Shown here one piece after another: positions 3,234 through 51,778 of a stretch of 64,000 nucleotides of DNA (its first letter is position 1; every line of letters starts with the position of its first letter). Origin of the DNA: a bacterium (GTDB lineage: Bacteria; Patescibacteriota; Doudnabacteria; UBA920; 2-01-FULL-46-14). The DNA lies in the NCBI GenBank assembly GCA_030700065.1, contig JAUYKH010000003.1:2876-66875 (forward strand), written 5' to 3'. The position numbers and the translations under genes were made by a program. The notes under the pieces were generated by a model. It saw only the letters and a list, made by a program, of their open reading frames with translations. It did no database searches and had not been told where the DNA came from.

Positions 3234-3272
3234 AACCCTTGGACCAAAGATCAGCGTTTTTGGATACTAAGG

Positions 3273-4484: not shown

Positions 4485-4508
4485 AATTTAGGTTATAATA
4501 CAAGCAAA

Positions 4509-33895: not shown

Positions 33896-33997
33896 TTTTT
33901 AGTTCCTTTCTTTTTTTCGGTCTAACTATTTTTGCCATTAGAGCCGATTAATTATTAGCCTTCTACCCTTAATGGCGAAAAATCTGGTGAAATAATG

Positions 33998-34024
33998 AAA
34001 AACCCCTATAAAAAGGGGTTTTTT
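33998..34024 (-). terminator. bidirectional intrinsic terminator (AAAAACCCCT-ATAAA-AGGGGTTTTTT)
   Basis: A perfect 10-bp stem is flanked by A-runs and T-runs. Confidence 0.6.
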
Positions 34025-34058
34025 GCTAACTTATTTCCGGTGAATTCACCGGGACGGC

Positions 34059-34973
34059 TTAGCTGTCATCATCTTGATTTTCTTCGTATACTGAAGGGTT
34101 TTGCTCATCCAAAAAATCCCTTATGCCAAGCCGATCTGGATGTTCAGGGTCGTGCCCTTGTTCGGGTATCAAATTAATTTTGATTCTGTATGCCTTCACT
34201 TTACGATAATTCTCGAATGGGTCGTCGGCAATCTGGAAATAGTACTTTAGCGCTTGCGACAGTAACTGTTTTCGTTTCTTGTTTTTTCCGCCTAAATCGT
34301 TGACGGTATCCCAGTTAATTTCGCCATTGTTGGCAGCCAATTCTTGCAACAGCTTCCATTGAACATTTGGCTGTTTGTTTTTTTCATTTTCAAACCCCAT
34401 CATCGCGAACGTGGTCTGCTTCCTTTCATCCCGAGCATCTATCATCACCTCGCCCCCATTAAAAAATCTTATAGCAATTTCTTCCCAGCGTAAGCCGGCT
34501 GGCCACTCGGGCAGTTCAATATTTTTTTTGCCTTTTCTAAGAATACTTGGCTTGGCAGGTACGTTGCTTTCCAAATCAGCAAGCATGTCATCAAGCGAAG
34601 CCTTTCTTTCCCTGTAGCCGTCGCCCTGCTTTAATTTTTTATAATATTTTAATAAATCCTCCCGTCCGTATTTTAAATCAATACTTTGGCCGTTTGTAAA
34701 TGCATTGGCAAAATCAATCAGGATATCGGGGTTCTTAATTATGAATAATTCTTCCAAATCATCCGCAATCCCTTGTAGTTCGGATTTTAACAGATCAATC
34801 TTGGCGATAAAATTGCCTGCACCACTAATATGATTCAGCAACGGACGGAATTCGGAAAGAGGAGTTGAAAATGATCGCTTTTTCCCTTTGGCTTCGAGCC
34901 TTTTGCGGATCAAAAAAATTAGCAAAGGATAAAGCAATTCTTTTTCTGGATAGTTAGTGTATACGCTGGGCAT
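34059..34973 (-). CDS. hypothetical protein (element 1)
   Basis: The 304-aa ORF has no recognisable motifs. Confidence 0.5.
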   Translation of the reverse strand: MPSVYTNYPEKELLYPLLIFLIRKRLEAKGKKRSFSTPLSEFRPLLNHISGAGNFIAKIDLLKSELQGIADDLEELFIIKNPDILIDFANAFTNGQSIDLKYGREDLLKYYKKLKQGDGYRERKASLDDMLADLESNVPAKPSILRKGKKNIELPEWPAGLRWEEIAIRFFNGGEVMIDARDERKQTTFAMMGFENEKNKQPNVQWKLLQELAANNGEINWDTVNDLGGKNKKRKQLLSQALKYYFQIADDPFENYRKVKAYRIKINLIPEQGHDPEHPDRLGIRDFLDEQNPSVYEENQDDDS

Positions 34974-36157: not shown

Positions 36158-37705
36158 CTACCTGTACATATAGATATTGGGCACACCTGGCCGATAATCC
36201 ATCCAGACTATTGTATTTTCATATATATCGGGGCTGCTTTGGGTTGTTCCCGGAAAATTGGTCAGTAATGTAGTCTCCCCTGTAACTATGTCATACATCA
36301 CAATATCCCCGGGGTTGTCATAGTAAGTGTCAAACCACACGATTTTTGTTCCATAGATGGCCGGTCCCCCTTGAGATCCTATGTTGCTCGAAAGCTGGGT
36401 TTCCTGGCCCGTGGTAATGTCGTACATGTACACATCCGGGTTATCATTCCGAAAATCCGTCCAAACAATGATGTTTCCGTAAATATCGGGGTGATTCTGT
36501 TGCCGTAAGGCCGTGGTAACATGCGTTTCCTGGTCTGTTGAAAGGTCATACAGATAAATATCAGAATTGCCTAAGCTGTTCCCCGTTTCATCAGGATTGC
36601 GCATGTCGTCCCACACTACTCTGTCCCCCTGTATTCGCGGACATCCGGGCAGGAGGACTGATCCCGAGAGGCTTCGTTCCTCCCCGGTAGTCAGATCCAA
36701 AAGATAAATATCACTGCGATTCGAATTACCCGGTTCATCGCTGTACCGATTGTCTCGCCACACCACGCGGTTTCCGTAAATGTCCGGGCAGGCCAGCTTG
36801 GCCAGATCGCTGTTGATTCTTGCGGTTTGTCCATTATCCGTATTGTATAAATAGACTGCGTCATTCACCCCATATACGATATTGTGCTCATAAACATGCG
36901 GGAAAATCTGCCCCTGGGACTGGACATTTGATATCTGGGCGGCTTCGCCGGTTGCAAGGTTCTTGTAGTAAACCTCCCAGGCATTGGTCCGATAATCGGC
37001 CCAGGCTACAATGTTGCCATAGATTGACGGTGAAAACTGGGGCGCATTGTTCGGGCTAACGGCAGAAATGGTGGGAGCGGGTGGCGGTGGGGGCGGAGGC
37101 AAAGCGATGTTGTAAGCGATGCAGTAAATATCCGCCGGGTGTTTTTTATCAAGTGAAACGAGCTCCAAATTATCCCCGTTGCGCGCGTTGTTATAGCATC
37201 GCAAGGCGGCAAAATCGGCTTCAATATTTTGATCGGGGTTTTCGCTCACCCACAACTTTTTGGGAAAATCTTTTTTCTTGTGAGTCGTGTCGAGGGAAGA
37301 CAAGGGAATTATCACCTCGCCGGACGAATCCGTCAGGGGAGTGAAAAAGACGTCTTTTGTTTGCCGTTGATCGGTTGAGAGCTTGAAGCTCCGGCCGCTT
37401 GTTCGGGCGCAGTTCGCGGGAATCTCGGCAGGATCTACGGGTTTGGGCGAGTATTTGGCCGGGAAATGCGGTCTGGAAGCGCTGTAGTTTGTAAAGTCCA
37501 CGTAATGCCCGCCGGTTTCGTCTTTGCGATCAGCTTTGGCATTTCCCGTAATGTCCTGCCAAGAGGGGCAATTTACGCTTATGAAATGCAACGATGCATC
37601 CGCCGGCGGAGCCGGGTGGGCCTGTGCCGTGGGCAGGATCGCCGCACCTAACACCAGCGCAACACCTCCTCCAACTATCGAGAATACAGACTTGTTCATA
37701 TTCAT
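36158..37705 (-). CDS. secreted beta-propeller repeat protein (TolB/PD40-like repeats) with a poly-proline linker
   Basis: A signal peptide MNMNKSVFSIVGGGVALVLGAAILPTAQA is present. The motif IYGNxVVWxDxR...DIYxxDLxTGEE recurs, and a PPPPPPPAP run is present. Confidence 0.5.
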   Translation of the reverse strand: MNMNKSVFSIVGGGVALVLGAAILPTAQAHPAPPADASLHFISVNCPSWQDITGNAKADRKDETGGHYVDFTNYSASRPHFPAKYSPKPVDPAEIPANCARTSGRSFKLSTDQRQTKDVFFTPLTDSSGEVIIPLSSLDTTHKKKDFPKKLWVSENPDQNIEADFAALRCYNNARNGDNLELVSLDKKHPADIYCIAYNIALPPPPPPPAPTISAVSPNNAPQFSPSIYGNIVAWADYRTNAWEVYYKNLATGEAAQISNVQSQGQIFPHVYEHNIVYGVNDAVYLYNTDNGQTARINSDLAKLACPDIYGNRVVWRDNRYSDEPGNSNRSDIYLLDLTTGEERSLSGSVLLPGCPRIQGDRVVWDDMRNPDETGNSLGNSDIYLYDLSTDQETHVTTALRQQNHPDIYGNIIVWTDFRNDNPDVYMYDITTGQETQLSSNIGSQGGPAIYGTKIVWFDTYYDNPGDIVMYDIVTGETTLLTNFPGTTQSSPDIYENTIVWMDYRPGVPNIYMYR

Positions 37706-37714
37706 ATCATTTAA

Positions 37715-38380
37715 TTAATAAATAGGTTTATTATTAAAGGCAATGTTGGTATCTCCAATAAGTTTATTTGTGCCGCCAGTACTGGCCTGTTTCATGAGCG
37801 ATTCTAGACCTCCGAATTCCTTATCGCCAAAGTAGGTATCGGTTTTATTTTGCATCGCCCTAGTAAAATCTCCCAGTGCCTCATCATATCGGCCCACTTT
37901 TAAGAAACAATAGCCCCGTTCTACCAACCCCCAACATAAACCATTAATTGCATCAGGCCCGCCAACAAACTTTAATCCAGTTGTGTAGTCAATTATGGCT
38001 TTGTCATACAGACCCTGCAGTCGGTATATTTCACCTTTTCTGTAAAAAGCTTGATAGTAGTCTGGCCGGGACAAAATCGCGTAATCTAACCATTTTAGCG
38101 CGTTATTAAAATCGTTCGCATATAAAAAATTCTGAACGGCCACTTTATATGCCGCAAGGCCGACTGACCCTAAACTTGCGCAAAAAACAGCTTCTTGTTG
38201 TAGCCCTAACCTTTCGAGTTCACAAATGATTATTTTTTGAATATCTTGTTCTTGCATACTTGTATTGGTGGAAGCCGCCCGGCTAACACAAAACCCCGTG
38301 TCAGCTGGCCTTGCGGCCCATAACCCTTTCGGGCTATGACTCGTTGAAAAGTTGCTGAACGCGGGGTTCACTGTTTTCAA
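37715..38380 (-). CDS. TPR-repeat protein; probable true start at 38257 (MQEQ), with the ORF-track N-terminus running through repeat copy 1
   Basis: TPR-like helices are present (YYQAFYRKGEIYRLQGLYDKAIIDY). The first 41 codons coincide with the 88-bp repeat element. Confidence 0.5.
   Translation of the reverse strand: MKTVNPAFSNFSTSHSPKGLWAARPADTGFCVSRAASTNTSMQEQDIQKIIICELERLGLQQEAVFCASLGSVGLAAYKVAVQNFLYANDFNNALKWLDYAILSRPDYYQAFYRKGEIYRLQGLYDKAIIDYTTGLKFVGGPDAINGLCWGLVERGYCFLKVGRYDEALGDFTRAMQNKTDTYFGDKEFGGLESLMKQASTGGTNKLIGDTNIAFNNKPIY
38283..38370 (-). repeat. 88-bp self-hairpin repeat, copy 1 (about 92% identical to copy 2 at 45792..45879, inverted orientation)
   Basis: Outer stem AACCCCGCGTTCAGC/GCTGACACGGGGTT and internal GNRA-loop hairpins. 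Based on my hand alignment of the two copies. Confidence 0.6.
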
Positions 38381-38520
38381 CGAGTTTTTCCTGCCATGCC
38401 CCAGTTATGGAGTTTAGGCCGTATTCAATTGTACTCGAATTATACGCCCGCGCTTTTTACTTATCAAGTGAAAAGTGGTAAAATAATACGACTAATTATA
38501 CTAAATACTAACTATAACAG

Positions 38521-39489
38521 ATGAGCGTAATACATGTAGGCCATTCAGAGATAGTACGATTCGCTGACGAACGAGTGAATCTCAAACGTGATGACGCGAA
38601 AGTCTTCAGAGATCAAATTAATCGTTTGCGTGATCGTTTAGAACAACACTTGAGTGAACATCCAGATTTTGCTCTTAAAAAAATGTTCCTATCAGGGAGT
38701 CTTGCAAAAGGGACAGCACTGAAATTGATTAATGATGGCGACGTTGCCGTTTACGTTTCTTCTGGCGATGCACCATCGGACACGCAGCAGCTTATCCCTT
38801 GGCTTGCACAGCGACTTCGTCAGGCCTTTCCCAATATCAAACCAGGGCAAGTCGTAGAAAATCCGTCCACGCTAACAGTATCTTTTATTGAAACAGGATT
38901 AAGGGTTGATGTCGTCCCTGTTCTTTATAGCGGTGATCCTAATTGGAAAGGTTATATTGTTTCAAAGCATACAGGGGAAAAAGTACTTACCAGCATACCG
39001 ATGCATATAGATTTCACTCGTCGCAGGAAAGCAGCAAATGAAATTCATTTCGCGCAAGTAGTCCGCCTCATGAAATTCTGGGTCAGGAATCAAAGACTAG
39101 AAAATCCAGAATTCCGATTCAAGTCATTCATGATTGAGTTGCTCGTGGCGCATCTTGCAGATCGAGGACTGCTCCAGCTTGATGACTATCCTGAAGCGTT
39201 GGCACAAATTTTTGCACATATTGCAAAAGATAGTTTTAAATCAACAATTGCATTTGGCGACCACTATGATCCCAAGCTTTGTGCTGAAACATCTCATCCG
39301 ATCCGCATTTGGGATCCCATAAACCATCAAAATAATACTGCTAGTCGCTATACTGACGCACAAAGAAAAACGATTATCGAATTCGCATTAGATGCTGGCG
39401 ATGCCATTGACTCCGCTCTCCACGCTACTACAAAGGCCGACACTCTACGATACTGGCGCAAAGTTTTAGGATCAACATTTGACGCATAA
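38521..39489 (+). CDS. cGAS/DncV-like nucleotidyltransferase (CD-NTase, CdnC-like)
   Basis: Pol-beta NTase signature SGSLAKGTALKLINDGDVAVYV, with a third acidic residue in LRVDVVPV. A helical C-domain follows (HFAQVVRLMKFW, FKSFMIELL). Confidence 0.75.
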   Translation: MSVIHVGHSEIVRFADERVNLKRDDAKVFRDQINRLRDRLEQHLSEHPDFALKKMFLSGSLAKGTALKLINDGDVAVYVSSGDAPSDTQQLIPWLAQRLRQAFPNIKPGQVVENPSTLTVSFIETGLRVDVVPVLYSGDPNWKGYIVSKHTGEKVLTSIPMHIDFTRRRKAANEIHFAQVVRLMKFWVRNQRLENPEFRFKSFMIELLVAHLADRGLLQLDDYPEALAQIFAHIAKDSFKSTIAFGDHYDPKLCAETSHPIRIWDPINHQNNTASRYTDAQRKTIIEFALDAGDAIDSALHATTKADTLRYWRKVLGSTFDA

Positions 39490-40003
39490 AAATATGTCTA
39501 ATTCTTATACGTTTACTGAAACACAAACATTTACATTCACGGATGCAAAATACATCGCCGCGAAGGTCGCGACCGATCTTGCCCGATTTAGACGTTTTTA
39601 CAATAGCCCTTCACTTGAACTTATTAAGCAGTACGAAGAAGAACTAACTGCTTTATTGAAAGCTGATTACTTGGATAACATAACTTATGGTTTCAAGAGA
39701 GGTGAAAAATGGATAGAAGCCCTTCGCTACCATGCTCTATCAGGCGGATCTCTAGTCGGAGATGATGACCCTGGCAAAATACGTCCAGGCGTCGATGTTA
39801 TGGGAGCACATTTCACTTCTTTTTTGGTTCTAAATAGTCGCTGGAGTCAATTATCTACGGCTGCACAAGAGGCTTTTGAAGCAAATCTGCCATTTAGAAG
39901 AGGCGGTGGAGATGAACCTGCTCTTGAAAGTGGATATTGGTCACATGGTCACAATTATGCATCGGGTGGACGCAGTATTGGACGCAGTACAATAATTCGT
40001 TAA
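39479..40003 (+). CDS. HORMA-like protein (Cap7-like), putative
   Basis: The 174-aa ORF overlaps the nucleotidyltransferase gene by 11 nt. Size and position match HORMA in type III CBASS. There is no independent motif evidence. Confidence 0.45.
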   Translation: MTHKNMSNSYTFTETQTFTFTDAKYIAAKVATDLARFRRFYNSPSLELIKQYEEELTALLKADYLDNITYGFKRGEKWIEALRYHALSGGSLVGDDDPGKIRPGVDVMGAHFTSFLVLNSRWSQLSTAAQEAFEANLPFRRGGGDEPALESGYWSHGHNYASGGRSIGRSTIIR

Positions 40004-40008
40004 ATATT

Positions 40009-40941
40009 ATGGATGAAGAAAATATAGACAATCTTTTTGATCAACGCGTTAATTTCCCAGATCCCGAGGCCTTAAGGCGCTTCGATAACCTGGTCGGGAT
40101 CGATGAAATCAAGCTAAGACTTATTCGATCTCTTGGGATACTCGTGAATCCTGAAGGGGTTCGTCAATGGGGTAAAAAATTTCATCCAGAAAGCACAGCG
40201 CTAATTGAGCTTGTAGAACGTCGCCCTCCTCTGGTAATTCTCAGCGGTGATGTAGGCACGGGCAAAACAGAACTTGCAACCACAGCCGGTGACCCAGTTG
40301 CCCGTCAAGAAAGTATTGATATAACTCTGTTTCCTCTAAGTCTTTCAACCCGAGGATCTGGAAGGGTCGGCGAAATGACAAAATTACTAAGTGAAGCCTT
40401 TAACGAAACTTTCAAAACGGCAGAAAAATTTAAGAGCCGTGGTTCAAAGGCAAGAGGGGCTGTGATTCTTTTGGTTGATGAAGCTGACGCCATTGTTCAG
40501 AGTCGTGAAAATAATCAGATGCATCACGAAGACCGTGCTGGAGTAAATGCGTTTATCCGAGGTGTCGATCGTCTCGCAACTCAACGGTTACCAGTGGCTG
40601 TTATATTATGTACCAATCGACTATCTGCGATTGATCCCGCTGTACAGAGACGCGCAGCAGAAATATTTGTTTTTAACAGACCCAATCCAGCACAACGTCG
40701 CACCGTTCTACAAAAACCTTTAACGGAGATAGGTTTCACTAAAAAAGAAGTAGAAAAAATTGTTCAACTGACTGGTTCTGTAGATGGTCGTAAGCACGGA
40801 TTTACTTATTCTGATTTAACACAGCGATTACTCCCAGCATTAGTGCTCGACGCCTATCCAGATAATCAAATAACTTTTAAGCGTTCACTTGAAGTTTTGG
40901 CGACGATTAATCCAACAGCTCCGTTTCAAAAATCAGCTTAG
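40009..40941 (+). CDS. AAA+ ATPase, TRIP13/Pch2-like (Cap6-like)
   Basis: Walker A GDVGTGKTE, Walker B ILLVDEADAI, sensor-1 CTNR and arginine fingers PAVQRRA are present. The track ORF starts at 39937. I prefer the ATG at 40009, just after the upstream stop. Confidence 0.65.
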   Translation: MDEENIDNLFDQRVNFPDPEALRRFDNLVGIDEIKLRLIRSLGILVNPEGVRQWGKKFHPESTALIELVERRPPLVILSGDVGTGKTELATTAGDPVARQESIDITLFPLSLSTRGSGRVGEMTKLLSEAFNETFKTAEKFKSRGSKARGAVILLVDEADAIVQSRENNQMHHEDRAGVNAFIRGVDRLATQRLPVAVILCTNRLSAIDPAVQRRAAEIFVFNRPNPAQRRTVLQKPLTEIGFTKKEVEKIVQLTGSVDGRKHGFTYSDLTQRLLPALVLDAYPDNQITFKRSLEVLATINPTAPFQKSA

Positions 40942-40946
40942 AATAT

Positions 40947-41705
40947 ATGGTAAATAAAGCCAAAGATGATTCCATAAAGGATGGCAGATCCTTTCTGAAG
41001 GATAGGTTCATAGATGTAGAAAAATTTTTTGTACAGCAACTTAGGCTTAATCAGAAAAGAATCACTCATGATGGTGCATTAGGGGACGCCACAGAAGATG
41101 TGTGGATTCAGTTGCTTCAAGATTATCTTCCTACGCGTTATCGGGTAGCCAAAGCTTTTGCAGTTGATTACCTGGGTAATACAACCCAGCAACTTGATTG
41201 TCTTATTTACGACGCACATTTTACTCCCGCCCTGTTTGGTAAGGACAATCATTTATACGTGCCAGCAGAAGCTGTCTACGCGACCTTTGAGATTAAACAG
41301 ACCATTAATGTTCAACATTTAAAAAACGCGGGAGATAAAGTCGCTTCTTTGCGTGCTCTACATCGCACATCTGCTCCCCTTGAAAATGCGACTGGCGTAA
41401 GTGAACCAAAACAGCTATTTCCAATTATGGGAGGACTACTTGGTATGAAGGCTTCATGGAAAGACGGCCTTGGTAATACATTTCTTAAACAATTCAACAC
41501 CTTGTCAGGCGATAGAAAACTTGACCTTGTTTTAACCGCTAGTAATGGTTTCTGTGATCATTTGGTAACGACTTATACTCCCACTATTGTTCATGGTCCT
41601 GGTTCGTTAATACGTGGCCTTTTCCGCCTCCTCAAGGCTTTACGAGCCAAGGCAACAGTGGCAGCTGTTGATTGGGAAAAGTACGAATCAGTTTTTGATG
41701 CATGA
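40947..41705 (+). CDS. NucC-like restriction-endonuclease-fold (PD-(D/E)xK) effector nuclease
   Basis: LDCLIYD ... PAEAVYATFEIKQ forms a D...ExK motif. GDATEDVWIQLLQDYLPTRY and LRALHRTSAPL resemble NucC family proteins as I remember them. Confidence 0.55.
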   Translation: MVNKAKDDSIKDGRSFLKDRFIDVEKFFVQQLRLNQKRITHDGALGDATEDVWIQLLQDYLPTRYRVAKAFAVDYLGNTTQQLDCLIYDAHFTPALFGKDNHLYVPAEAVYATFEIKQTINVQHLKNAGDKVASLRALHRTSAPLENATGVSEPKQLFPIMGGLLGMKASWKDGLGNTFLKQFNTLSGDRKLDLVLTASNGFCDHLVTTYTPTIVHGPGSLIRGLFRLLKALRAKATVAAVDWEKYESVFDA

Positions 41706-41735
41706 TGGCTAAACGCAACAAAACCCGAAAACGAA

Positions 41736-43331
41736 TCAGCAGTGTCGATCGCCAGGCGACACCAAAGACAGCACCGACAGCATTACTGCTAATGGAATGA
41801 ATTGGCCGGCAAGCTCGTGGCAAACTCCCGCCAGGCCTTCAGATCTGCTACAATTAGGTTCCAAGTCCCTCCCACAAGGGCTACCAACAGAACTTTTATT
41901 TCTCTCTGCAACTAATTTGAACTGTTTCTTCCAATGAATCTGTAGGTTTTCCTGATCCCATTGGGTGTTTTCCAACATAGATTTCACTAAACGTCGTTTA
42001 TTCTCGTCAGAGGCCTGAACATAAGCTAAATAAGGCTGTTTGAGAAGTTTTCCAATTTCCGCGATTTTTTCCAAAGTATCCTCATCGGCCTTGTCCAAAG
42101 CACGTCTCCTATGTTGGATTTCAGCTCTTCGGTTCACGAATCCGGTTTTCATAGTTCGAAACTCCTCATCAGTTATTTCATCTTCCAAGTTTTTATTCAA
42201 AAGCATTTCCAACTTTTTCTGAAGTTTGGCCTCCTCTAGATCCAAATGCGTAAGCTCAGTAGCTTTGGTGCTTTGCAAATCTGCCCTTAGTGTGCTTACG
42301 GCCTTCAGAAATATCTCGGCTTCGGCATCAGTGAACTCTAGCTTTTTCAATTCAGTAAGGAATAGGTATTCTATCTCAGTTTCTCGAATCGAGCTCCGAA
42401 AGGAGCATTTTTTGTCCCGGCAGTTGTAGTATTTGTAAATCTTTTTGGCTGATACTGACCGCATTGGCTGATTGCAGGTTGGACAAGGGATGAGCTGTTG
42501 GAATATGTAAGTAAATGTCCTGATCTTTTTATAGCTCTTTTTGTCCATTACGGCTTGGACCTTGTCGAAAAGGGCTTTTGTAATTATTGTTTCGTGAGAA
42601 CCGTTGTAATCTTGATTCCTGTAAGTGATGATTCCATGATAAAACCTTTTTCTCAAGATTTTATACATTGCTTTCGGTTTGAGCACTTGACCTTGCTTGT
42701 TTCGCAGTCCCAGCTTTTCCATTTTCTCCGTCAGCGTCTCGATGTCATAGGTTCCGGTCGAATATAGCTCAAAAGTTTTGCGGACAAGATGAGCGTATCT
42801 AGGATCAGGTGCTTTAACTCCTCGTCCAGCATCAAGATAGCCGATAGGTGCAGCAGTTGGAGAGCGTCCATCTCGGAGCATTCCTTCGATTCCTTTGTTA
42901 ACGTGGAATTTCAGGTTCTCTGTAAAAGAGCTGGCCATTCCCCAGAGAATCATCAGCATTGATCTGGCGGCATGGTTGTTAGTGGACATTCCTTCACCGA
43001 CGAAGTGATAAGTGTACCCTTGCGTCATCAGCTCATAGAGTGTGGCTTGGTCGTACGGATTGCGAGCGCTTCTATCTACAGAGTGGAAAATCACGTTGAG
43101 GACTTCCTTTTTCCGAAGCTGTTTGATCATATCTCCGAACTGCGGCCGATCAAGTTCCGATGCGCTGTCGACCTCGACATATTCCTTTATGATTGTGAGT
43201 TTACTTCTATCAGCGTACAAATTGATCTGCCGCTGTTGCTCTTCAAGACTTTGACCAAAACTCTGAAGTCGGCTCGATACGCGAATGTATGAAAAGGCTT
43301 GTTTTTGCTCCGATTCCTGCTGTTCTGTCAT
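41736..43331 (-). CDS. large serine recombinase #2 (resolvase domain + recombinase + zinc ribbon)
   Basis: FSYIRVSSRLQ carries the catalytic serine. CPTCNQPMRS...YYNCRDKKCSF is a zinc ribbon. A coiled-coil C-terminus follows. Confidence 0.85.
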   Translation of the reverse strand: MTEQQESEQKQAFSYIRVSSRLQSFGQSLEEQQRQINLYADRSKLTIIKEYVEVDSASELDRPQFGDMIKQLRKKEVLNVIFHSVDRSARNPYDQATLYELMTQGYTYHFVGEGMSTNNHAARSMLMILWGMASSFTENLKFHVNKGIEGMLRDGRSPTAAPIGYLDAGRGVKAPDPRYAHLVRKTFELYSTGTYDIETLTEKMEKLGLRNKQGQVLKPKAMYKILRKRFYHGIITYRNQDYNGSHETIITKALFDKVQAVMDKKSYKKIRTFTYIFQQLIPCPTCNQPMRSVSAKKIYKYYNCRDKKCSFRSSIRETEIEYLFLTELKKLEFTDAEAEIFLKAVSTLRADLQSTKATELTHLDLEEAKLQKKLEMLLNKNLEDEITDEEFRTMKTGFVNRRAEIQHRRRALDKADEDTLEKIAEIGKLLKQPYLAYVQASDENKRRLVKSMLENTQWDQENLQIHWKKQFKLVAERNKSSVGSPCGRDLEPNCSRSEGLAGVCHELAGQFIPLAVMLSVLSLVSPGDRHC

Positions 43332-43393
43332 AGTCGAAGTTGAACGAAGTTAATAATAGGATATAAAGCCCAAAATTCTAAGGACAGCTATGT

Positions 43394-43825
43394 TTACTGC
43401 TGTTTTGACCTCTTTTTTCTTCTGTCCCTCTCCTCCTGCTCTCTCTGGAACTGCAGAAATTCCTCATGCTGTTCTTTCGACCTTTTTTCTTCGTACTCCA
43501 AGTCTTCCCTGCGTTTTTTGTCCTCCTCGCTCTCTTCTCGTATGGCTTTGTATTTGGGAATATTCCTGTATATCGTGTCAAGATTGTAGCTCAGTCCGCG
43601 TTCCTCAAAGTAAGATTTTAATTCCGCGATGAGACTGTACGCTTTTTCAAGGGCCCAATCGTTAATCTTCTTTGCGGCCCTGACGTGTCTCTCGAACGGC
43701 TCGTATTTTCTGTCGAGCTTTGCGATCCAGAAATAGAACTCTACGATTTTCTGAACATTGGTGAGATTTCTCTTACTCAGAGATTGGAGATGTTTATTAA
43801 AATCAGGTAAAAAATCTTGATTCAT
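43394..43825 (-). CDS. hypothetical charged protein
   Basis: The 143-aa ORF has a K/E/R-rich C-terminus. Confidence 0.4.
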   Translation of the reverse strand: MNQDFLPDFNKHLQSLSKRNLTNVQKIVEFYFWIAKLDRKYEPFERHVRAAKKINDWALEKAYSLIAELKSYFEERGLSYNLDTIYRNIPKYKAIREESEEDKKRREDLEYEEKRSKEQHEEFLQFQREQEERDRRKKRSKQQ

Positions 43826-43921
43826 AGAATTTTCTTGATATATAAACCTAAAAGGTTTAAGTTAATTACTTTTCTTAATTTAAAGTTACTTACTTCTTAA
43901 TAATCCAATCAATTTGATTGG

Positions 43922-44287
43922 CTATGGAGGTTTATCTAGCCTATATTTTTGATTGGTACGGATTAGCAGCCATTTTCGGAGCTTTTCATCAGGCAATAAT
44001 TTATACCTTGTTGCAACTCCAACCTTGTCTATCCTGAATCCGCTTTCATACTTAATCAGACCCAGTTCTCGCAGTTTTTTTCTGGCACGGTTGATTGCAG
44101 CAGGACTAAGGCCAAAGCGCTTTGTAATTTGCCGGTCAGTGTAATGAAACTTGTCGGTCGAAAACCGATGAGACAAATACCAGAGAATCAAAAGCAGTTC
44201 AAACTCGGACGGCTTGAGGATCAGCAGATATTTCTCCAACAGCCGATTAGGCAGCATCAGAAAGTTTTTCTCTGGTATGAGCTTCAT
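43922..44287 (-). CDS. winged-helix HTH DNA-binding protein
   Basis: YTDRQITKRFGLSPAAINRARKKLRELGLI is an HTH. Confidence 0.5.
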   Translation of the reverse strand: MKLIPEKNFLMLPNRLLEKYLLILKPSEFELLLILWYLSHRFSTDKFHYTDRQITKRFGLSPAAINRARKKLRELGLIKYESGFRIDKVGVATRYKLLPDEKLRKWLLIRTNQKYRLDKPP

Positions 44288-44862
44288 AGTCCCTTCGGCC
44301 AGTCTCTGTAGATTCGCAAAGCGTTTTTTACCTGAATTTCCTGGCCCTGAATATCTCTAGCTGAAATTTTTTTACCGGCCATGACTTCGCTGTACGGCAC
44401 ATATGGCAAAACCCGGTAAATCTTCCGGTCCACTATTGGTGTCTGCCTTCTGCCTTCAAAATACCGAGGATACTCCCTTATCTGAACAAGGGCGAAAAAC
44501 CTTTTACCGATGAGCTGTTCTGGATCAGTGTATTGATTGAAGGCGTTGATGTCCTGAATCGCATTTCCAAGAATCGAGTTTATGCTGATCACATAATGAC
44601 TCAGGATGTGATTCTTGAACGGCATTTGAGCATAAATCCACTCATTGTTGCAGCAAAGATCGTGGGCGTCGATCTGAAACGTGTCCACTTTTTTCGGTTC
44701 CTCCTCCTCGAAGTGGTAGGTTATAATTCCTCTTTTCACCTCTGTGACCTTCATCATGTGCACGTCAAAGGACTCGCCAGTTACATCTTTGACAATTTTA
44801 TAAACTTTCTCGGCCGCTTTGAGTCTTCTTTTGCGAAGCCTCTCTTGCTTGTTGTTTAGCAT
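44284..44862 (-). CDS. hypothetical protein
   Basis: The 192-aa ORF overlaps the downstream gene by 4 nt. Confidence 0.4.
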   Translation of the reverse strand: MLNNKQERLRKRRLKAAEKVYKIVKDVTGESFDVHMMKVTEVKRGIITYHFEEEEPKKVDTFQIDAHDLCCNNEWIYAQMPFKNHILSHYVISINSILGNAIQDINAFNQYTDPEQLIGKRFFALVQIREYPRYFEGRRQTPIVDRKIYRVLPYVPYSEVMAGKKISARDIQGQEIQVKNALRIYRDWPKGL

Positions 44863-45105
44863 TTTCTATCTCCTCAAAAATTGCCAGAATCGCCTGGAAA
44901 AACTCCAGGAGATCTGGATCGATTTCGTTATTTAATTGTTCCGAATTCTCAAACATAAAAAGCCCGCATCGATCTACAAGCGTTTAGCTTATAAACCAAT
45001 ACGGGCTTCCTACCGTTTGAGACCACTACTCGCGGTGGGTTTTATATTAAGTTTAACTAAGCATAGTTTACACTATATTAAATCGGTTGTCAAGAATCCT
45101 CACTG

Positions 45106-45543
45106 CTATTTTAATTTCAGCAAATAATCACCAGCTATTTCAACCTCTGGCCGACCTGGTTCGCTTTTAAGTACTCTCTCCCTATCTTCAATGAAAAGTG
45201 TGTCTCGTTTGGTGCCGTCTTCGTCTTGCTCCCGTGCCCAATCGTAAGTGCCGTCGAAAATTAAAGTATTGAACTTGCCGCAGTTTTCGCAGTACGCCGC
45301 CATTTCAATAAACTTCACGAAGACTTTTGTATTTTTTCCGGCTTTAATTTTTGCCCTGTTGCCGTTAATGTCAATAACTAATATTGCACTGCAATCTGAA
45401 CATACCCATGATTCACGGTTATCGGCTCGCCGCATTTTCGCATCTATGTATTTGTTCTCTTCTCTGGCTTTTTGCCATTCTTCTTCGCTACCATAAGTCC
45501 GTTTGTAAAACTCTTGTATAAATTCTCTCAAATTTTTGGCCAT
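45106..45543 (-). CDS. hypothetical zinc-ribbon protein
   Basis: CSDCS ... CENCGK pairs are present. Confidence 0.4.
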   Translation of the reverse strand: MAKNLREFIQEFYKRTYGSEEEWQKAREENKYIDAKMRRADNRESWVCSDCSAILVIDINGNRAKIKAGKNTKVFVKFIEMAAYCENCGKFNTLIFDGTYDWAREQDEDGTKRDTLFIEDRERVLKSEPGRPEVEIAGDYLLKLK

Positions 45544-45791
45544 AGTATAAAGTTAATAATTTCCCTTATTTTACAGGAAACGGCGTAAAAGAGTAATAGG
45601 CTGACGCATATGACACGCATTCCCTAACGCAATAGGGATAGACATACATGAACCAAAAAGTGCTCCAAACGGCCGTTTTTCGTCAAATAACAGCTATTTA
45701 TGAATTAAGCAGGAAGTTATATAATAAAAATGACAATTAAGCCTAAACCTTTGAAAATGAGGCATGGCACAAAAAACTCATGGAAGATACT

Positions 45792-45879
45792 GAACCCCGC
45801 GTTCAGCAACTCTTCCATGAGTCATATCCCGAAAGGGCTATGGGCCGAAAGGCTAGCTGACACGGGGTTTTGTGTTACC
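45792..45879 (+). repeat. 88-bp self-hairpin repeat, copy 2
   Basis: See copy 1. The track ORF 45730..45927 is merely a translation of this element. Confidence 0.6.
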
Positions 45880-45905
45880 TGCCAGCGGAAAGGAAATAAA
45901 AGCGT

Positions 45906-46325
45906 ATGGACAAGAAATTTCACATAAGTTGGGGCAAGAGGCATATAATTTATCTTGTCGACATTTTCATACTAAGTCTGGTATCTTATCTCCTTATCGG
46001 TGAACGAGAATCGGATATAATAACGGCTATTGGTATAATCGGAATTGTTTTATATTTTATCCTAATGCCACACTATTTCGGATTCACGTTAGGACAGAAA
46101 ATTTTCAAACTCAAGACAGTTGATGCCAAATCAGGAAATTTTCCTTCAGTGAAAATGTTGCTCCTTCGAGAGTTGAGTTCTTTTTTGGCTTTAACATTCA
46201 TTGGATTTATAGTCGCAGACTCAACATATTCTCCTAAATCTGGATTTTATTGGGACAGATGGACAAGTATAAAAATTATACCTGAAAAATTATCATTAGC
46301 AGAGTTCGATCAATATGAAAAATAG
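45906..46325 (+). CDS. RDD-family membrane protein
   Basis: GFTLGQKIFKLKTVD matches the RDD-family signature. Three TM segments are predicted. Confidence 0.5.
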   Translation: MDKKFHISWGKRHIIYLVDIFILSLVSYLLIGERESDIITAIGIIGIVLYFILMPHYFGFTLGQKIFKLKTVDAKSGNFPSVKMLLLRELSSFLALTFIGFIVADSTYSPKSGFYWDRWTSIKIIPEKLSLAEFDQYEK

Positions 46326-48197: not shown

Positions 48198-49127
48198 ATG
48201 AGTATTGAAAAAAAGTGGCTAGCACCTGTTTATAAAAGACTTGCTAAATCTGAACTGGGAAAGGCAAGCCATACATCCGGCATCGTACCAACGAGAATCA
48301 CGACACGTTACTTCGGAATCCCGAGATTAAAAAAAACACATACCATAAATAGAATCAGTATAGAATTCTGGTATGAAAACAAAAGCACGTTTATAACTAC
48401 AAACGTAAATTATCATGAAGCCGAAACACATCAAAAACAGATTCACTTAAGTGGCAATTTGTTTCCGACCTATAAAAAATTTGGCGCAGAACAAGGAGAT
48501 ATTGTAGTGTTCTGGAGGTCGGCAGATGGTGATAAACTTTTTAAAGCAGAACTGATAAAGCAAAATTCAAGCAGGTGGAAACAAATCAAGAGCCGTCGAC
48601 ATTTCCCTGGTTCGGGGGGATTTATAATTCTTGATCCACCAGGAAAAGGAATCGCCGCTGGTTTTGTTGGTGAGAACCAAGATGAATATCAAATTCCTTC
48701 CAGTGTAGAACTTGAATTCACTGTTGCAAATTTTCCTCCAGAAAAAAGACGCGGTAAATTAGTGCAAAAACAGACTGAAGCTCCCTTAAGAAGCAAAATC
48801 AAAGGAGATTTTGTACTTAAAATGCGAAACTATAAATGCGAGGGCAACCTCTCTCATAATACTTTTATTACACCAAATGGTTTTCCGTATATGGAGAAGC
48901 ATCACTTGATCCCAATGAAGTATTATGACGAGTTCGAATATGACCTTGATGACATCAATAACCTCATTTCATTGTGCCCGGTGTGCCATCGAAAAATACA
49001 TTATGGCAAAACGGATGAAAAGGTCTCTCTAATAGAGAGCCTTTGGAATAAACACAAGACTGATCTGGAAAAATCAAATCTGAGTATTGAGATCAGTGAG
49101 TTAAAGAAAAAATATTCATCTGAATAA
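48198..49127 (+). CDS. HNH-motif restriction endonuclease (putative Type II R subunit)
   Basis: A C-terminal HNH motif CEGNLSHNTF...HHLIPMK...CPVCHRKIH is present. The gene lies next to two C5-cytosine methyltransferases. Confidence 0.55.
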   Translation: MSIEKKWLAPVYKRLAKSELGKASHTSGIVPTRITTRYFGIPRLKKTHTINRISIEFWYENKSTFITTNVNYHEAETHQKQIHLSGNLFPTYKKFGAEQGDIVVFWRSADGDKLFKAELIKQNSSRWKQIKSRRHFPGSGGFIILDPPGKGIAAGFVGENQDEYQIPSSVELEFTVANFPPEKRRGKLVQKQTEAPLRSKIKGDFVLKMRNYKCEGNLSHNTFITPNGFPYMEKHHLIPMKYYDEFEYDLDDINNLISLCPVCHRKIHYGKTDEKVSLIESLWNKHKTDLEKSNLSIEISELKKKYSSE

Positions 49128-50198
49128 ACTATTAAGCAGAGATGTTTTTCTAAAGATTGACTTCAGTACTGTTTCTGCCACGTTAACGGTAATTGCATTC
49201 CCGGATTGACGGTATAATTGTGTATCCGAAACCCCGGCACTTTTTGCTTTATAAACGAACTCATCAGGAAAACCCTGTAATCTGAAAGCTTCAACAGGGG
49301 TGATTCTTCTTATTCTGCCCGGCCCCTCAGTGCTTTCAGCCAGTGCTACTGACTGTTTAATATTGCTGAAATTTCCGAAAATAAAGCGATCAGAATAATA
49401 GTTATCCTGGTTTGCCCTATGGAGTTTATGCATTGTAGCAGTCAATGGTCTGGCAATTAACCGATTTATTTCCGATTTAGAACTATATCCACCTGTGCCA
49501 TCGGAAAGAATAGTTTTCAATATTTTTTTTGACAGATAATATTTGTCATCAACCTCCCTTTCAAGAAGGTGCCAAACTGTTTTATATCTTTGAGAAGTTT
49601 TTTCTTTCTGGAACTCCAGTTCTTTGATCTCTTCATAAACTCCTTGATTTTTTGTCCCTATAAGATATATGCGTCTTCTGGTCTGAGGTACACCAAAATT
49701 ATGGCTATTCAGAACATCAACACGCACTTTGTATTCCAACTTGACGGTTAGAATATCAAGAATACGTTGCAGAGTTTTCCCGTTATCGTGGCTCTGCAGG
49801 CCCCTAACATTTTCCAGTACAAAAAGTTGTGGTTTTTTCGTTTCTAATATTTTCGCTATATAGAAGAATAAAGTACCTCTTGCATCTGTAAATCCTTTCT
49901 TGAGTCCCATCAAGCTGAAAGGTTGACAGGGAAAGCCGGCAAAAAGAACTTCAAAATCCGGAATACTTTTTTCTATAGTTTTTTTCGATTCAAATTTTGT
50001 AATATCTCCGAGTCCTGTTTCTGAATCCACATCAAAATTTGTCCCATAAGTAAGTACTGCGTTTTTATCTATTTCACTGTACCCGACACATTTGGTATTT
50101 AAACCAATTTTTTTTCCGACCCTCTCCATTGCCAACCTAAAACCACCAATTCCGGAAAATAAATCTAAATACCGAACCTGTTCATTTCTGTTAAACAT
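49116..50198 (-). CDS. DNA (cytosine-5)-methyltransferase
   Basis: Motif I DLFSGIGG, motif IV GFPCQPFS and ENV (LENVRGL) are present. Confidence 0.9.
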   Translation of the reverse strand: MFNRNEQVRYLDLFSGIGGFRLAMERVGKKIGLNTKCVGYSEIDKNAVLTYGTNFDVDSETGLGDITKFESKKTIEKSIPDFEVLFAGFPCQPFSLMGLKKGFTDARGTLFFYIAKILETKKPQLFVLENVRGLQSHDNGKTLQRILDILTVKLEYKVRVDVLNSHNFGVPQTRRRIYLIGTKNQGVYEEIKELEFQKEKTSQRYKTVWHLLEREVDDKYYLSKKILKTILSDGTGGYSSKSEINRLIARPLTATMHKLHRANQDNYYSDRFIFGNFSNIKQSVALAESTEGPGRIRRITPVEAFRLQGFPDEFVYKAKSAGVSDTQLYRQSGNAITVNVAETVLKSIFRKTSLLNSLFR

Positions 50199-50220
50199 TT
50201 TTGTTTTTTCATTTTAATCT

Positions 50221-51372
50221 CTAAAAAGCTATTCGCTTTACGTTTTTTGCTATTATTCCTGCCAGGATCGGTGGGACAGAGTTTCCAATTTGATTATACC
50301 ATTGTGTAAAGGGACCGTAAAAAATATAGTTATCGGGAAAACTCTGGATTCTTGCTGCCTCTCTCGGAGTCAGTCCCCTCGTTTCATAGGGATGAATGTA
50401 CATATGACAGTCGAATTTCATATGTGAGGTGATGGTTTTTGAAGGTTCGTTAGGGAGAAGCTTATAAAATTTATCTTTAAAAATACCATTTCTTTTTGTG
50501 TACGGCATGATATGAGAAATAACAGGGTGGTCTGACTTTCCTCCCTGGGGCAATAGCCTGTATATCTCTATATCTCTTTTATTATTATATCTTGTTTTGT
50601 GATTGAATATAAATTCCGGAATTTTGCCACCATTGATTTTAAGGATATACTCGGGAGGTTTTTCTTTCGGGAAAAGTTCATCTTTTGTAAATCCATGGTC
50701 CCTTGATTCTATACTCGTATCATTCTTTTCTGATTTTGGTTGTAATTTTCTCAGTCCCCATAAAGCATCTTTTATAGGAACTTCTTTTGTTTCTTGATGT
50801 TTTAGAATCTGTGCAAATATGCGCTCTATTATATCATAAGGATTTTTAAATTTATCCGATCTACATCCGATGTAAAAAATTCTTTCTCTATTCTGTGGTA
50901 TTCCAAAGAATTTGGCATTTAAAACCCTATATTGTGTTTGATATCCGATTTTAAGAGAATCGTAAACAACTTGATCAGCAACTTTATTCATACCTTTAAC
51001 ATTCTCCATCAAAAACATTTTCGGCTTTATAATAGAAATGGCCTCCATAAATTTTTTATATAATTTATTTCTAGGATCATCAATAAGTCTTTGTCTGTTA
51101 GCCATACTAAAACCCTGGCAAGGGGGGCCTCCAACAACCAGATCACATTTAATACTAGCCAATTCCTTACTTTTATCCTTTATGAAATCCTCTATATCAC
51201 CGCACACAATCCTGTCCGGTGATATATGAAGGTAGTTCTTTTGGAACGTTTCAATTGAATGTTTATCTATATCATTTGCATACAGAGGTATGAATCCCTG
51301 TGATTCAAAGCCGATAGATAGCCCTCCTGCTCCGCAGAACAAATCAATAAAGGTAATTTTATTATTTTTCAT
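50221..51372 (-). CDS. DNA (cytosine-5)-methyltransferase (second copy)
   Basis: DLFCGAGG, GGPPCQGFS and ENVKGM are present. Confidence 0.9.
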   Translation of the reverse strand: MKNNKITFIDLFCGAGGLSIGFESQGFIPLYANDIDKHSIETFQKNYLHISPDRIVCGDIEDFIKDKSKELASIKCDLVVGGPPCQGFSMANRQRLIDDPRNKLYKKFMEAISIIKPKMFLMENVKGMNKVADQVVYDSLKIGYQTQYRVLNAKFFGIPQNRERIFYIGCRSDKFKNPYDIIERIFAQILKHQETKEVPIKDALWGLRKLQPKSEKNDTSIESRDHGFTKDELFPKEKPPEYILKINGGKIPEFIFNHKTRYNNKRDIEIYRLLPQGGKSDHPVISHIMPYTKRNGIFKDKFYKLLPNEPSKTITSHMKFDCHMYIHPYETRGLTPREAARIQSFPDNYIFYGPFTQWYNQIGNSVPPILAGIIAKNVKRIAF

Positions 51373-51778
51373 TCTTTTCGAGATAATCCATAACCTTTGC
51401 TATACACTTATTCGGATTAGTTTTTATTTGGTGCCCCCAAAATCTTAAGACCTTAATACCGTTTTTTCGGAGGTACATGCTTATTTTTCTATCTCTTTTT
51501 ATATTTTCTCTGATTTTTTCTTTCCAGAAGCCGGCATTACTTGCAGGAGCTATATAACATCTGGGGCATTTATGCCAGAAACAGCCATCTAAAAATACAG
51601 CTAATTTATTTTTCGGGAAAAATACATCTGGTTTTCCGTAAATTTTGGTTTTAATTCTATAATTTTTTAATCCTGCGCTGTAAAGGGATTTTCTGAAATT
51701 CAATTCCAATGTAGTATTCCGTGCTTTTATCTGCGACATGTTAAAACTGCGTTGTTTTCTGGTATGAACATCAGCCAT
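51362..51778 (-). CDS. vsr: very-short-patch repair endonuclease
   Basis: FLDGCFWHKCPRC is the Vsr signature. It overlaps the methyltransferase gene. Confidence 0.8.
   Translation of the reverse strand: MADVHTRKQRSFNMSQIKARNTTLELNFRKSLYSAGLKNYRIKTKIYGKPDVFFPKNKLAVFLDGCFWHKCPRCYIAPASNAGFWKEKIRENIKRDRKISMYLRKNGIKVLRFWGHQIKTNPNKCIAKVMDYLEKNEK

Follow-up and report, generated by a model that had tools for sequence, protein, structure and literature searches.

Two LOOT RNAs as candidate operon leaders in a serine-recombinase-bearing island of a Doudnabacteria genome

Two LOOT RNA copies and their relatives

The window analyzed here is the whole 64-kb stretch (64,000 nucleotides) taken from contig JAUYKH010000003.1 of a Doudnabacteria genome assembly (GCA_030700065.1). 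It contains a low-GC island (30-56 kb), beginning at a tRNA-Glu gene, in which a repeat search of the 64-kb window revealed a 123-nt inverted repeat (arms 38284-38406 and 45755-45877; 87% complementary), the sole long inverted repeat within the window. Scanning of the window against Rfam 15 showed that both repeats are full-length copies of the LOOT RNA (RF03000; gathering score 46.4 bits), named here LOOT1 and LOOT2. Each copy lies directly 5' of a co-oriented gene, as the original prediction for this DNA had noted, with gaps to the open reading frame (ORF) of 25 and 27 nt. The two copies and the genes that follow them are:

38307-38420, minus strand: LOOT1, Rfam match (72.9 bits; model positions 1-121 of 121)
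38284-38432, minus strand: LOOT1, full predicted unit from start to end of the U-tract (match of the extended model R1 at 38282-38422, 129.8 bits; folding z -4.25)
37715-38257, minus strand: gene of a tetratricopeptide repeat (TPR) protein, the first after LOOT1 (Logan gene call of 176 aa)
36158-37705, minus strand: gene of a 515-aa secreted repeat protein, the second of the LOOT1 unit
45740-45854, plus strand: LOOT2, Rfam match (76.4 bits; model positions 1-121 of 121)
45733-45879, plus strand: LOOT2, full predicted unit (R1 match at 45738-45879, 140.4 bits; folding z -5.33)
45906-46325, plus strand: gene of an RDD-family membrane protein, the first after LOOT2 (Pfam RDD, E = 2.7e-10), starting 27 nt past the LOOT end

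The original prediction had described a pair of inverted repeats of about 88 bp, approximately 92% identical to each other. The inverted pair is confirmed, but the units are longer (about 147 nt; 38284-38432 on the minus and 45733-45879 on the plus strand), the 88-bp versions being only their 3' two-thirds, and the identity measured over 38283-38370 and 45792-45879 is 89% (79 of 89 positions). The Rfam match begins about 50 nt upstream of the 88-bp unit, with helix P1 and the 5' strand of helix P3, and ends about 23 nt before its 3' end. No third LOOT copy was detected in the 64 kb even at E <= 1.

LOOT originates from the Weinberg/Breaker comparative screen (Weinberg et al. 2017; PMC5737381; ZWD alignment). 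The family has since been named as a metagenomic RNA (PMC7779021) and among families with many cross-covariations (PMC7657543), and it has an entry in an R-scape table (PMC11701678). The literature searched mentions LOOT only in passing and reports no function for it; LOOT is a known family and a functional orphan, to which the window adds a pair of members. The pseudoknot extension, the cis-leader position, the host range in Patescibacteria and the linkage to recombinases and tRNA genes, all described below, appear to be unreported in the same literature.

Homologues were collected with the pattern GCCTAAAC-N(8-25)-GCATGGC-N(45-75)-CCGAAAGG, which yielded five IMG/VR contigs and at least 120 genome loci; all locus counts given here are among the matches listed. 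In total, 127 LOOT copies from about 125 public loci were examined, and all 16 of the homologous loci tested scored over the Rfam LOOT threshold. The three anchor motifs are invariant in this set because the search pattern forces them, and the Rfam consensus shows the same motifs independently. An extended covariance model (R1) that includes the 3' tail was built, and 102 hits were aligned (alignment A2).

The hosts are nearly all metagenome-assembled genomes (MAGs) of Patescibacteria (candidate phyla radiation, CPR) or viral contigs, with representatives of Levy-, Saccharibacteria, Paceibacterota, Uhr-, Moran-, Doudna-, Woese- and Roizmanbacteria. Some loci are labeled as archaeal or proteobacterial (Bathyarchaeia, Methanofastidiosum, Gammaproteobacteria). 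The 5.8 kb around LOOT is 100% identical between one locus labeled Nanoarchaeia (L022) and one labeled Uhrbacteria (L052). Such labels probably belong to mis-binned or mislabeled contigs of Patescibacteria or their phages. The cultured-phage database gave no LOOT match.

LOOT typically occurs once per locus. With the R1 model, 124 of 125 loci (at most 8-14 kb each) yielded a single copy; the one exception, L075, carries two copies on the same strand, 2.5 kb apart. Nine metagenome contigs of the window's own subtype carry one LOOT each, including one (L132) with 6.8 kb of sequence on either side. Four MAGs (CAWINB01, CAZOKE01, CAWJQC01 and DATKWK01) contain two copies each. The window copies are 80-88% identical to LOOT copies on unrelated metagenome contigs, and in the structural alignment they are 82% identical to each other, compared with 77-78% to the best foreign copies. 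Judged from these alignments, the similarity between the two window copies is not special.

Fold of the LOOT RNA and its 3' tail

The structural elements of the two copies are located as follows:

38393-38419, minus strand: LOOT1 P1 hairpin with the internal loop CCUAAAC/GCAUGG (Rfam alignment)
38340-38384, minus strand: LOOT1 P3 (5' strand 38374-38384, apical loop 38354-38368, 3' strand 38340-38350)
38307-38338, minus strand: LOOT1 P4 with GAAA loop (38319-38338) and P5 with GCAA loop (38307-38318)
38285-38305, minus strand: LOOT1 pseudoknot 3' strand GCUGACACGGGGUU (38292-38305), running into the U-tract UUUUGUGUU (38285-38293)
45741-45768, plus strand: LOOT2 P1 with the internal loop CCUAAAC/GCAUGG (Rfam alignment)
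45777-45821, plus strand: LOOT2 P3 (5' strand 45777-45787, apical loop 45793-45807, 3' strand 45811-45821)
45823-45854, plus strand: LOOT2 P4 with GAAA loop (45823-45842) and P5 with GAAA loop (45843-45854)
45856-45876, plus strand: LOOT2 pseudoknot 3' strand (45856-45869) and U-tract UUUUGUGUU (45868-45876)

The fold is composed, in order, of P1, an A-rich linker, a hypervariable 11-bp P3, P4 (GAAA loop), P5 (GNRA loop) and the tail, and both window copies fold far better than shuffled sequences (z of -5.3 for LOOT2 and -4.3 for LOOT1). The CCUAAAC...GCAUGG internal loop of P1, the linker, the GAAA-capped P4 and the GNRA-capped P5 are present in both; the capped hairpins had been recognized in the original prediction and are borne out by the sequence and the Rfam alignment. 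We take the P1 loop to be a close likeness of the 11-nt GAAA-tetraloop receptor (CCUAAG/UAUGG), and P4 carries a GAAA loop.

The 3' tail extends beyond the Rfam model and is seen in all homologues when the reading is anchored on the P4 loop. It pairs with the apical loop of P3, which provides the 5' strand, in a pseudoknot of 13-15 bp that is absent from the Rfam model. The long outer stem proposed earlier (AACCCCGCGTTCAGC/GCTGACACGGGGTT) is genuine: it is this pseudoknot, and it covaries across about 100 homologues. Loop and tail change together, as in GAACCCCGCGUUCAGC/GCUGACACGGGGUU of the window, AAGCUCGUCGUCAG/CUGGCGGCGAGCUU of locus L007 and CCCAUCGUUUAGGG/CCCUAGCGGUGGG of locus L009. The loop-by-tail duplex of LOOT1 has an energy of -22.9 kcal/mol. 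In an alignment-free comparison, duplexes formed by loop and tail of the same locus averaged -23.5 kcal/mol, compared with -14.6 kcal/mol for cross-locus combinations, and none of 2000 permutations reached the mean of the own pairs. In alignment A2 the core pairs of the pseudoknot are paired in 87-98% of sequences, with changes on both sides in 11 of 13 pairs.

Over the whole structure 93.3% of the alignment cells are paired (69.6% after shuffling and 35-45% with the partners slid), and both partners vary in 37 of 41 pairs. For P3 these values are 97.3% and 11 of 11 pairs. Between the window copies, P3 carries three compensatory double substitutions (A-U to G-C, G-C to U-A and G-C to A-U). Since the P3 differences are fully compensatory, they point to selection on the fold and not on a recombinase-binding sequence.

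The Rfam model places a local hairpin at the tip of P3, in the same nucleotides as the pseudoknot. This upper P3 hairpin is weakly supported among the homologues collected here (75.8% paired, few double changes); the P3 loops nevertheless fold locally better than shuffled loops (-5.5 versus -2.0 kcal/mol), and the hairpin may be a competing fold. The LOOT RNA as described here shares with the Rfam model the P1 motif (CCUAAAC/GCAUGG), P3, the GAAA-capped P4 and the GNRA-capped P5. The model, by contrast, ends before the 3' tail and lacks the pseudoknot, the U-tract and an ACAAYTGAAT box found at the 5' side of most copies.

The U-tract lies directly after the 3' strand of the pseudoknot and has the consensus UUU(G/U)UGUUU; of 102 sequences, 93 have U at five or more of the first 8 nt past the pseudoknot. 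Pairing of the U-tract with the A-rich linker, taken from the minimum-free-energy fold of LOOT2, was rejected (-3.53 versus -3.43 kcal/mol; 1121 of 5000 permutations reach the observed value). Pairing of the U-tract with the 5' ACAA box is weak (-3.97 versus -3.49 kcal/mol; 6 of 5000 permutations) and may be regarded as a possibility only.

Position at operon heads and mobile-element setting

Promoter-like sequences precede both window copies:

38439-38467, minus strand: predicted sigma-70-type promoter of LOOT1, TTGATA-17-TATAAT (11/12 consensus match)
45720-45725, plus strand: predicted -10 box of LOOT2, TATAAT (from the sequence and the -10 enrichment in homologues)

The predicted start of LOOT1 is the A of ACAATTGAAT (about 38432) and that of LOOT2 lies at about 45733 (ACAATTAA). 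The -35 box of LOOT2 is weak, and the promoter scan did not list this site. Among 123 homologues, -10-like hexamers are concentrated 23-28 nt before P1, and it is the promoter match together with this recurrent spacing that places the putative RNA 5' ends at about 38432 and 45733. In most loci the ACAAYTGAAT box is situated between the -10 box and P1, approximately 5-15 nt upstream of P1 (45733-45740 and 38423-38432 in the window). Its sequence, which includes the palindrome CAATTG, could correspond to the RNA 5' end, an operator or a pause element.

The orientation of LOOT relative to genes is nearly invariant. A simple ORF caller placed the nearest ORF downstream on the same strand as LOOT for 117 of 118 copies, with a start mostly 10-90 nt after the U-tract, and the upstream neighbor is divergent in 86 of 120 cases. 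The downstream genes themselves are diverse. A set of 105 distinct downstream proteins matches 55 Pfam families, the largest of which has five members, and does not form a coherent gene set of the riboswitch type. The families include zinc ribbons, DNA methylases, bacterial PH domains, SNase, RDD, DUF6804, T5orf172, HSDR_N and UDG, and many of the proteins have hydrophobic N-termini of membrane or secretion type.

In the window, the TTG-started ORF 37715-38380 passes through LOOT1, so that, as had been proposed, the annotated N-terminus of the TPR protein is a translation of the element. The TPR Pfam matches begin at about residue 82, and the likely true start is ATG 38257. ORFs called through LOOT (the long TPR N-terminus and a 65-aa ORF, 45730-45927) are artefacts. 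The 515-aa protein encoded next has a signal-peptide-like N-terminus and internal periodic repeats of about 130-150 nt (YGN..VW motifs, beta-propeller-like); it matches no Pfam family.

In a subset of loci the P3 5' strand is repeated near the start codon of the downstream gene. With at least 9/10 identity, such a copy was found in 18 of 100 loci (L038, L082, L102, L003, L049, L015, L042, L086, L091 and others), compared with about 0.7% in cross-locus comparisons; it lies 0-8 nt from the start codon and usually includes the A-rich linker. In some 16-18% of loci an exact copy of linker and P3 5' strand, 10-19 nt long, abuts the start codon of a gene with no visible Shine-Dalgarno sequence. Pairing of the P3 3' strand is stronger with the downstream region of the same locus than with those of other loci (-9.39 versus -7.26 kcal/mol; 0 of 5000 permutations), as is that of the 5' half of the tail (-10.94 versus -9.41 kcal/mol), and the P3 5' strand, used as a control against the downstream region, gave no locus-specific signal. 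In this subset, owing to the copy, the P3 3' strand has the start region of translation as an alternative pairing partner and can thereby sequester it. Apart from this downstream direct copy, no inverted or upstream P3 copies and no repeats of any LOOT 16-mer were found above chance within 600 nt to 3 kb. Inverted repeats seen at three loci (L085, L048 and L055) were considered as attachment-like or invertible sites and discarded, as they are not general across loci. For the P3 strands of the window, the 64 kb contain one match with one mismatch (30920-30932, inside the gene of recombinase #1), which we judge to be due to chance.

When all neighboring proteins were clustered, large serine recombinases emerged as the dominant family near LOOT, with members at 60 of the 126 loci. 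In 47 cases the recombinase gene lies upstream of LOOT and is divergent from it, in 6 it is upstream but has the same orientation, and in 10 it lies downstream with the same orientation. The original prediction had linked the repeats to such a recombinase; the association holds, but not as ends mobilized by the enzyme. Two types were distinguished: (i) a recombinase of about 440 aa, 53-77% identical to the copy of locus L063 used as reference, whose gene directly abuts LOOT in either orientation, and (ii) a recombinase of 510-590 aa, encoded about 2.0-2.7 kb upstream and divergently, with small genes between. A DUF5659 protein, upstream and divergent in 21 of 22 cases, is among the products of these small genes. 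The gene of the 440-aa type has one orientation in L028, L049, L104, L048, L076 and L042, and the opposite one in L063, L055, L085, L035, L087, L067, L101, L015, L050 and L020; no inverted repeats flanking it were found in these two sets of loci. Other neighbors of LOOT include terminase subunits, a portal protein, tyrosine integrase, prim-pol/helicase, methylases and defense-type ATPases.

In 13 loci (L006, L007, L018, L039, L041, L047, L059, L061, L084, L115, L120, L131 and L132) the 3' end of the recombinase gene overlaps the 3' end of a tRNA or transfer-messenger RNA (tmRNA) gene. The usual layout is a tRNA gene, followed by the recombinase gene and small genes directed towards it, and by LOOT directed away from it into the cargo, LOOT being situated 2-5 kb within the element. 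The overlaps suggest a family of integrative elements of Patescibacteria in which the recombinase gene spans the attachment site.

Comparison of related loci revealed that homology breaks off at the edges of LOOT: at -25 to -30 in the phage family of L002, at +1 to +3 in L081, L103 and L117, at +22 in L037 and L040, and at +168 to +175 in L030, L036 and L106. LOOT is therefore a module boundary across which upstream arms and cargo are reshuffled, and since the breakpoint positions vary from pair to pair, homologous exchange is a better fit than crossover at a fixed site. The first real gene after LOOT in the L002 family encodes the portal protein. Locus L071 carries, directly upstream of a phage segment with LOOT and a portal gene, ORFs (1594-4504) that by eye resemble an arsenic-resistance operon (ArsR/ArsD/ArsA/ArsC-like), and its homology with related phage contigs ends about 29 nt before LOOT.

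The island of the window contains the following further features:

30030-30107, plus strand: tRNA-Glu(ttc), its 3' end overlapped by the 3' end of recombinase #1
30067-31593, minus strand: large serine recombinase #1, the predicted attachment end of element 1, whose far arm bears the LOOT1 unit
38521-41705, plus strand: complete type III-like operon of a cyclic oligonucleotide-based antiphage signaling system (CBASS), encoding a SMODS CD-NTase, bacHORMA_1, a TRIP13-like AAA protein and a DUF6602 putative effector (Pfam)
41736-43331, minus strand: large serine recombinase #2 (Pfam Resolvase, Recombinase and Zn_ribbon_recom), encoded divergently from LOOT2 at a distance of 2407 nt upstream
41826-41887, plus strand: degenerate remnant that resembles tRNA-Glu between its anticodon arm and GGGCTACCAA, within the 3' end of the recombinase #2 gene (tRNA-Glu alignment)
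43394-45543, minus strand: four small genes between recombinase #2 and LOOT2, with a helix-turn-helix/replication-initiator-like protein at 43922-44287

The C-terminal residues of recombinase #1 are encoded by the complement of tRNA-Glu. This enzyme is 57% identical to the recombinase of L115, and recombinase #2 shares 47% identity with its counterpart in L120; the genes of these two relatives overlap intact tRNA-Glu(ttc) genes. The remnant came to light only when the recombinase #2 3' end was inspected and aligned with tRNA-Glu genes; it ends in an identical GGGCTACCAA. The last 40 or so residues of recombinase #2 look like read-through of a junction.

From this layout we infer two elements integrated in tandem at tRNA-Glu, with the junction at about 41.85 kb. 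Element 1 (about 30.07-41.85 kb) would comprise recombinase #1, prim-pol/helicase genes, LOOT1 followed by the TPR and 515-aa protein genes, and the divergent CBASS operon. Element 2, from about 41.85 kb, would comprise recombinase #2, the replication-initiator-like gene, small genes, and the divergent LOOT2 followed by the RDD gene and later genes. LOOT2 matches the common layout exactly. Since the remnant places the junction inside it, the 7.3-kb interval bracketed by the two copies would not be one mobile unit. As originally described, this interval does hold the CBASS operon and a serine recombinase, but in place of five small genes it has four minus-strand ORFs of at least 100 aa.

The CBASS operon is divergent from LOOT1, about 100 nt apart, and no homologues of its proteins were found near LOOT copies of the other loci; it is context and not part of the RNA element. 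Across 29.8-57 kb, neither direct repeats marking attachment (att) sites nor a second copy of the tRNA-Glu 3' end (up to 3 mismatches) were found. No empty site lacking the interval was found among relatives: exact-protein look-ups returned short Logan contigs only, all from run SRR13727534, and the 515-aa protein had no relative in a metagenome search. The GC content steps near both LOOT copies. The lowest-GC part of the island contains a restriction-modification-like cluster (48198-52481) with an HNH protein (Pfam), two ORFs resembling C-5 cytosine methylases, one Vsr-like ORF and a further ORF (51771-52481); the methylase-like and Vsr-like ORFs were recognized by translation and by BLAST neighbors in L094 and L072. 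Between the prim-pol gene and the ORF that follows it (33966-34084), sub-threshold matches to the rimP leader occur on both strands (34.6 and 31.3 bits; threshold 47), probably owing to a chance palindrome.

A probable cis-acting leader and its alternatives

We consider it probable that the window carries two independent LOOT genes, each a cis-acting leader or attenuator of an outward-facing operon, within tandem serine-recombinase elements. Of the readings put forward in the original prediction, that of a structured 5' leader RNA is the one upheld: both copies are LOOT, the downstream gene is almost always co-oriented, and P3 changes are compensatory. Each RNA of about 147 nt would have a promoter of its own and head an operon, LOOT1 leading into the TPR gene and the gene of the 515-aa protein, and LOOT2 into the RDD gene and subsequent genes. 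The pseudoknot and the U-tract would act together as a conditional intrinsic terminator gating read-through into cargo or whole-element operons, with the competing local hairpin of the P3 loop as the switching part. In about one-sixth of the loci, the P3 3' strand would swap to the copy at the start region and thus couple the fold to translation. The inverted pair would have arisen from two tandem elements at tRNA-Glu whose LOOT-led units point apart.

Several points weigh against this proposal. The terminator scan detected no simple hairpin terminator at either window copy, as may be expected from a long-range helix, and a pseudoknot acting as a terminator would be unusual. The start, the 3' end and termination of the RNA are all predicted from sequence. 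Rfam types LOOT as a small RNA (sRNA) gene, and it may be a terminated RNA acting in trans. The start-codon copy occurs in just 16-18% of loci and was found at neither window LOOT, so the translational arm does not apply in the window. The downstream genes have no common function, and no ligand or signal can be proposed for that reason. LOOT1 shows the rarer layout, with the recombinase co-oriented and downstream (10 loci, e.g., L040), and the tRNA-Glu remnant at the putative junction is degenerate. Finally, the homologue set derives from one exact pattern, and its loci span at most 8-14 kb, a length at which partners more than about 4-7 kb away would be missed in most loci.

The same arrangement could belong to a stand-alone sRNA with its own terminator that acts by base pairing, in element immunity or as an antisense RNA on the model of phage P1 c4, with P3 as the specificity determinant. 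The Rfam class, the predicted promoter, the terminator-like 3' end, the phage or mobile-element context and the hypervariable P3, whose 3' strand becomes antisense to the start region in the 16-18% of loci bearing a 5' strand copy, all agree with it, and c4 itself acts from inside the c4-icd-ant operon (PMC8198154). The antisense strand is, however, held within an 11-bp helix of the folded LOOT, searches of 600 nt to 3 kb detected no target at over 80% of loci, both window copies among them, and neither the near-absolute co-orientation nor the short distance to the ORF is required of a trans-acting RNA. We regard such an sRNA as rather unlikely.

A ligand-sensing riboswitch aptamer, with the pseudoknot-terminator as its expression platform and a second messenger or stress metabolite switching on the cargo, is quite unlikely. 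The compact architecture (GAAA tetraloop, receptor-like loop, pseudoknot), the leader position and the competing hairpin suit an aptamer. Second-messenger riboswitches precede diverse membrane and defense genes, genes of both kinds lie downstream of LOOT, and one window copy adjoins CBASS. The conserved nucleotides are, however, nearly all accounted for by structural motifs, leaving no evident conserved unpaired pocket; the antiterminator-like local hairpin is weakly supported; the downstream genes form no coherent set that would suggest a ligand, and CBASS genes do not recur near other LOOTs.

It is very improbable that LOOT acts as DNA, at or beside a serine-recombinase attachment site that serves as a cargo-swap hotspot. 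A recombinase is near in about half of the loci, the gene of the 440-aa type abuts LOOT in either orientation, homology breakpoints fall at LOOT edges, and the GC content steps near both window copies. However, the breakpoints lie at several positions (-30, +1, +22 and +170), as in homologous recombination at a conserved module, the visible attachment junctions are tRNA or tmRNA 3' ends located 2-5 kb from LOOT, and no repeated half-sites were found. The GNRA loops, the receptor-like loop and the one-strand, G-U-containing covariation indicate selection on RNA.

The reading of the two copies as terminal inverted repeats of one 7.6-kb element moved by recombinase #2 had been the first of those originally offered, and it is scarcely credible. 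It accounts for the inverted orientation and for the recombinase inside the interval, an arrangement shared with Tn4451-type elements and other transposons. However, LOOT is single in nearly all public loci (at most 8-14 kb each) and in all nine metagenome contigs, and among these the inverted pairing is unique to the window; the copies differ by compensatory changes and not as a conserved protein-binding sequence would, and are about as alike as copies from unrelated genomes; both are promoter-led leaders facing outward; and the tRNA-Glu remnant sets an element boundary inside the interval. Serine integrases work on short att sites and not on long terminal repeats, and the recombinases found near LOOT are associated with tRNA and tmRNA ends. 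The idea of a dispersed repeat resembling repetitive extragenic palindromes (REP) or miniature inverted-repeat transposable elements (MITE), to which more than one copy per genome (two in the window and two in each of four MAGs) might point, can be dismissed in view of the low copy number (two in 64 kb and one per locus elsewhere), the strict orientation relative to the next gene, the predicted promoter, the GNRA loops, the extensive covariation in place of near-identical copies, and the finding of no target-site duplications or flanking repeats.

The cis-acting leader that we favor has several partial parallels. Leaders of the ZTP, fluoride and preQ1 riboswitch types contain, beside a terminator, a pseudoknot between an upstream loop and a 3' strand. 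LOOT resembles them in being promoter-proximal, in its loop-by-tail pseudoknot beside a U-tract and in the gene 10-90 nt downstream, but differs in having neither a ligand nor a coherent regulon; moreover, its pseudoknot helix itself abuts the U-tract, whereas those leaders use a separate terminator hairpin.

A second parallel is the c4 antisense RNA of phages P1 and P7 (immI operon), together with the CI RNA of P4. The a1/a2 repeats belong to the known detail of phage P1 c4. Like c4, LOOT is an RNA in the operon leader of a mobile element, and a subset of LOOTs has a segment complementary to the start of the next gene, the target copy lying upstream in the same transcript (for c4, PMC8198154); the leader-encoded c4 RNA blocks the ribosome-binding site of the next gene. 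The two RNAs share no sequence or structure similarity, and the Rfam c4 models do not match LOOT; the complementary strand of LOOT is helical and not in a loop, and the target copy occurs in about one-sixth of loci and not in the window.

The PR'-tR' leader of lambda (6S RNA) and the put RNAs of HK022 are leaders that, with a terminator, gate phage operons. As with LOOT, phage genes are preceded by a promoter that looks constitutive, a short leader with structure and an end resembling a terminator, but there is no homology and the likeness is a pure analogy. A put- or qut-like antitermination leader may be considered as an alternative mechanism; to our knowledge, no antiterminator protein or interaction with RNA polymerase is known for LOOT.

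A bolder proposal, which we offer tentatively and think doubtful, is that LOOT is the master cis switch of a large, undescribed family of tRNA- and tmRNA-integrating serine-recombinase elements and phages of Patescibacteria. It would then be a pseudoknot terminator with element-specific control through its hypervariable P3 and pseudoknot helices, either immunity-like or as a signal sensor releasing defense and membrane cargo, and not a passive sRNA.

In the window, there is no 7.6-kb CBASS transposon; the region would consist of two serine-recombinase elements, one behind the other at tRNA-Glu, that each carry an operon headed by LOOT. For the family, which Rfam files as an sRNA of metagenomic origin (PMC7779021) and which here behaves as a gene leader in mobile elements of Patescibacteria, the analysis adds a host range (Patescibacteria with their phages and elements), a genomic role as a leader that lies close to the promoter and precedes variable cargo or whole-element operons, a structural part missing so far (the loop-to-tail pseudoknot with its U-tract) and a strong linkage to large serine recombinases. 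LOOT is thus a concrete candidate for RNA-based control of mobile-element and defense genes in a lineage in which almost no regulation is understood.

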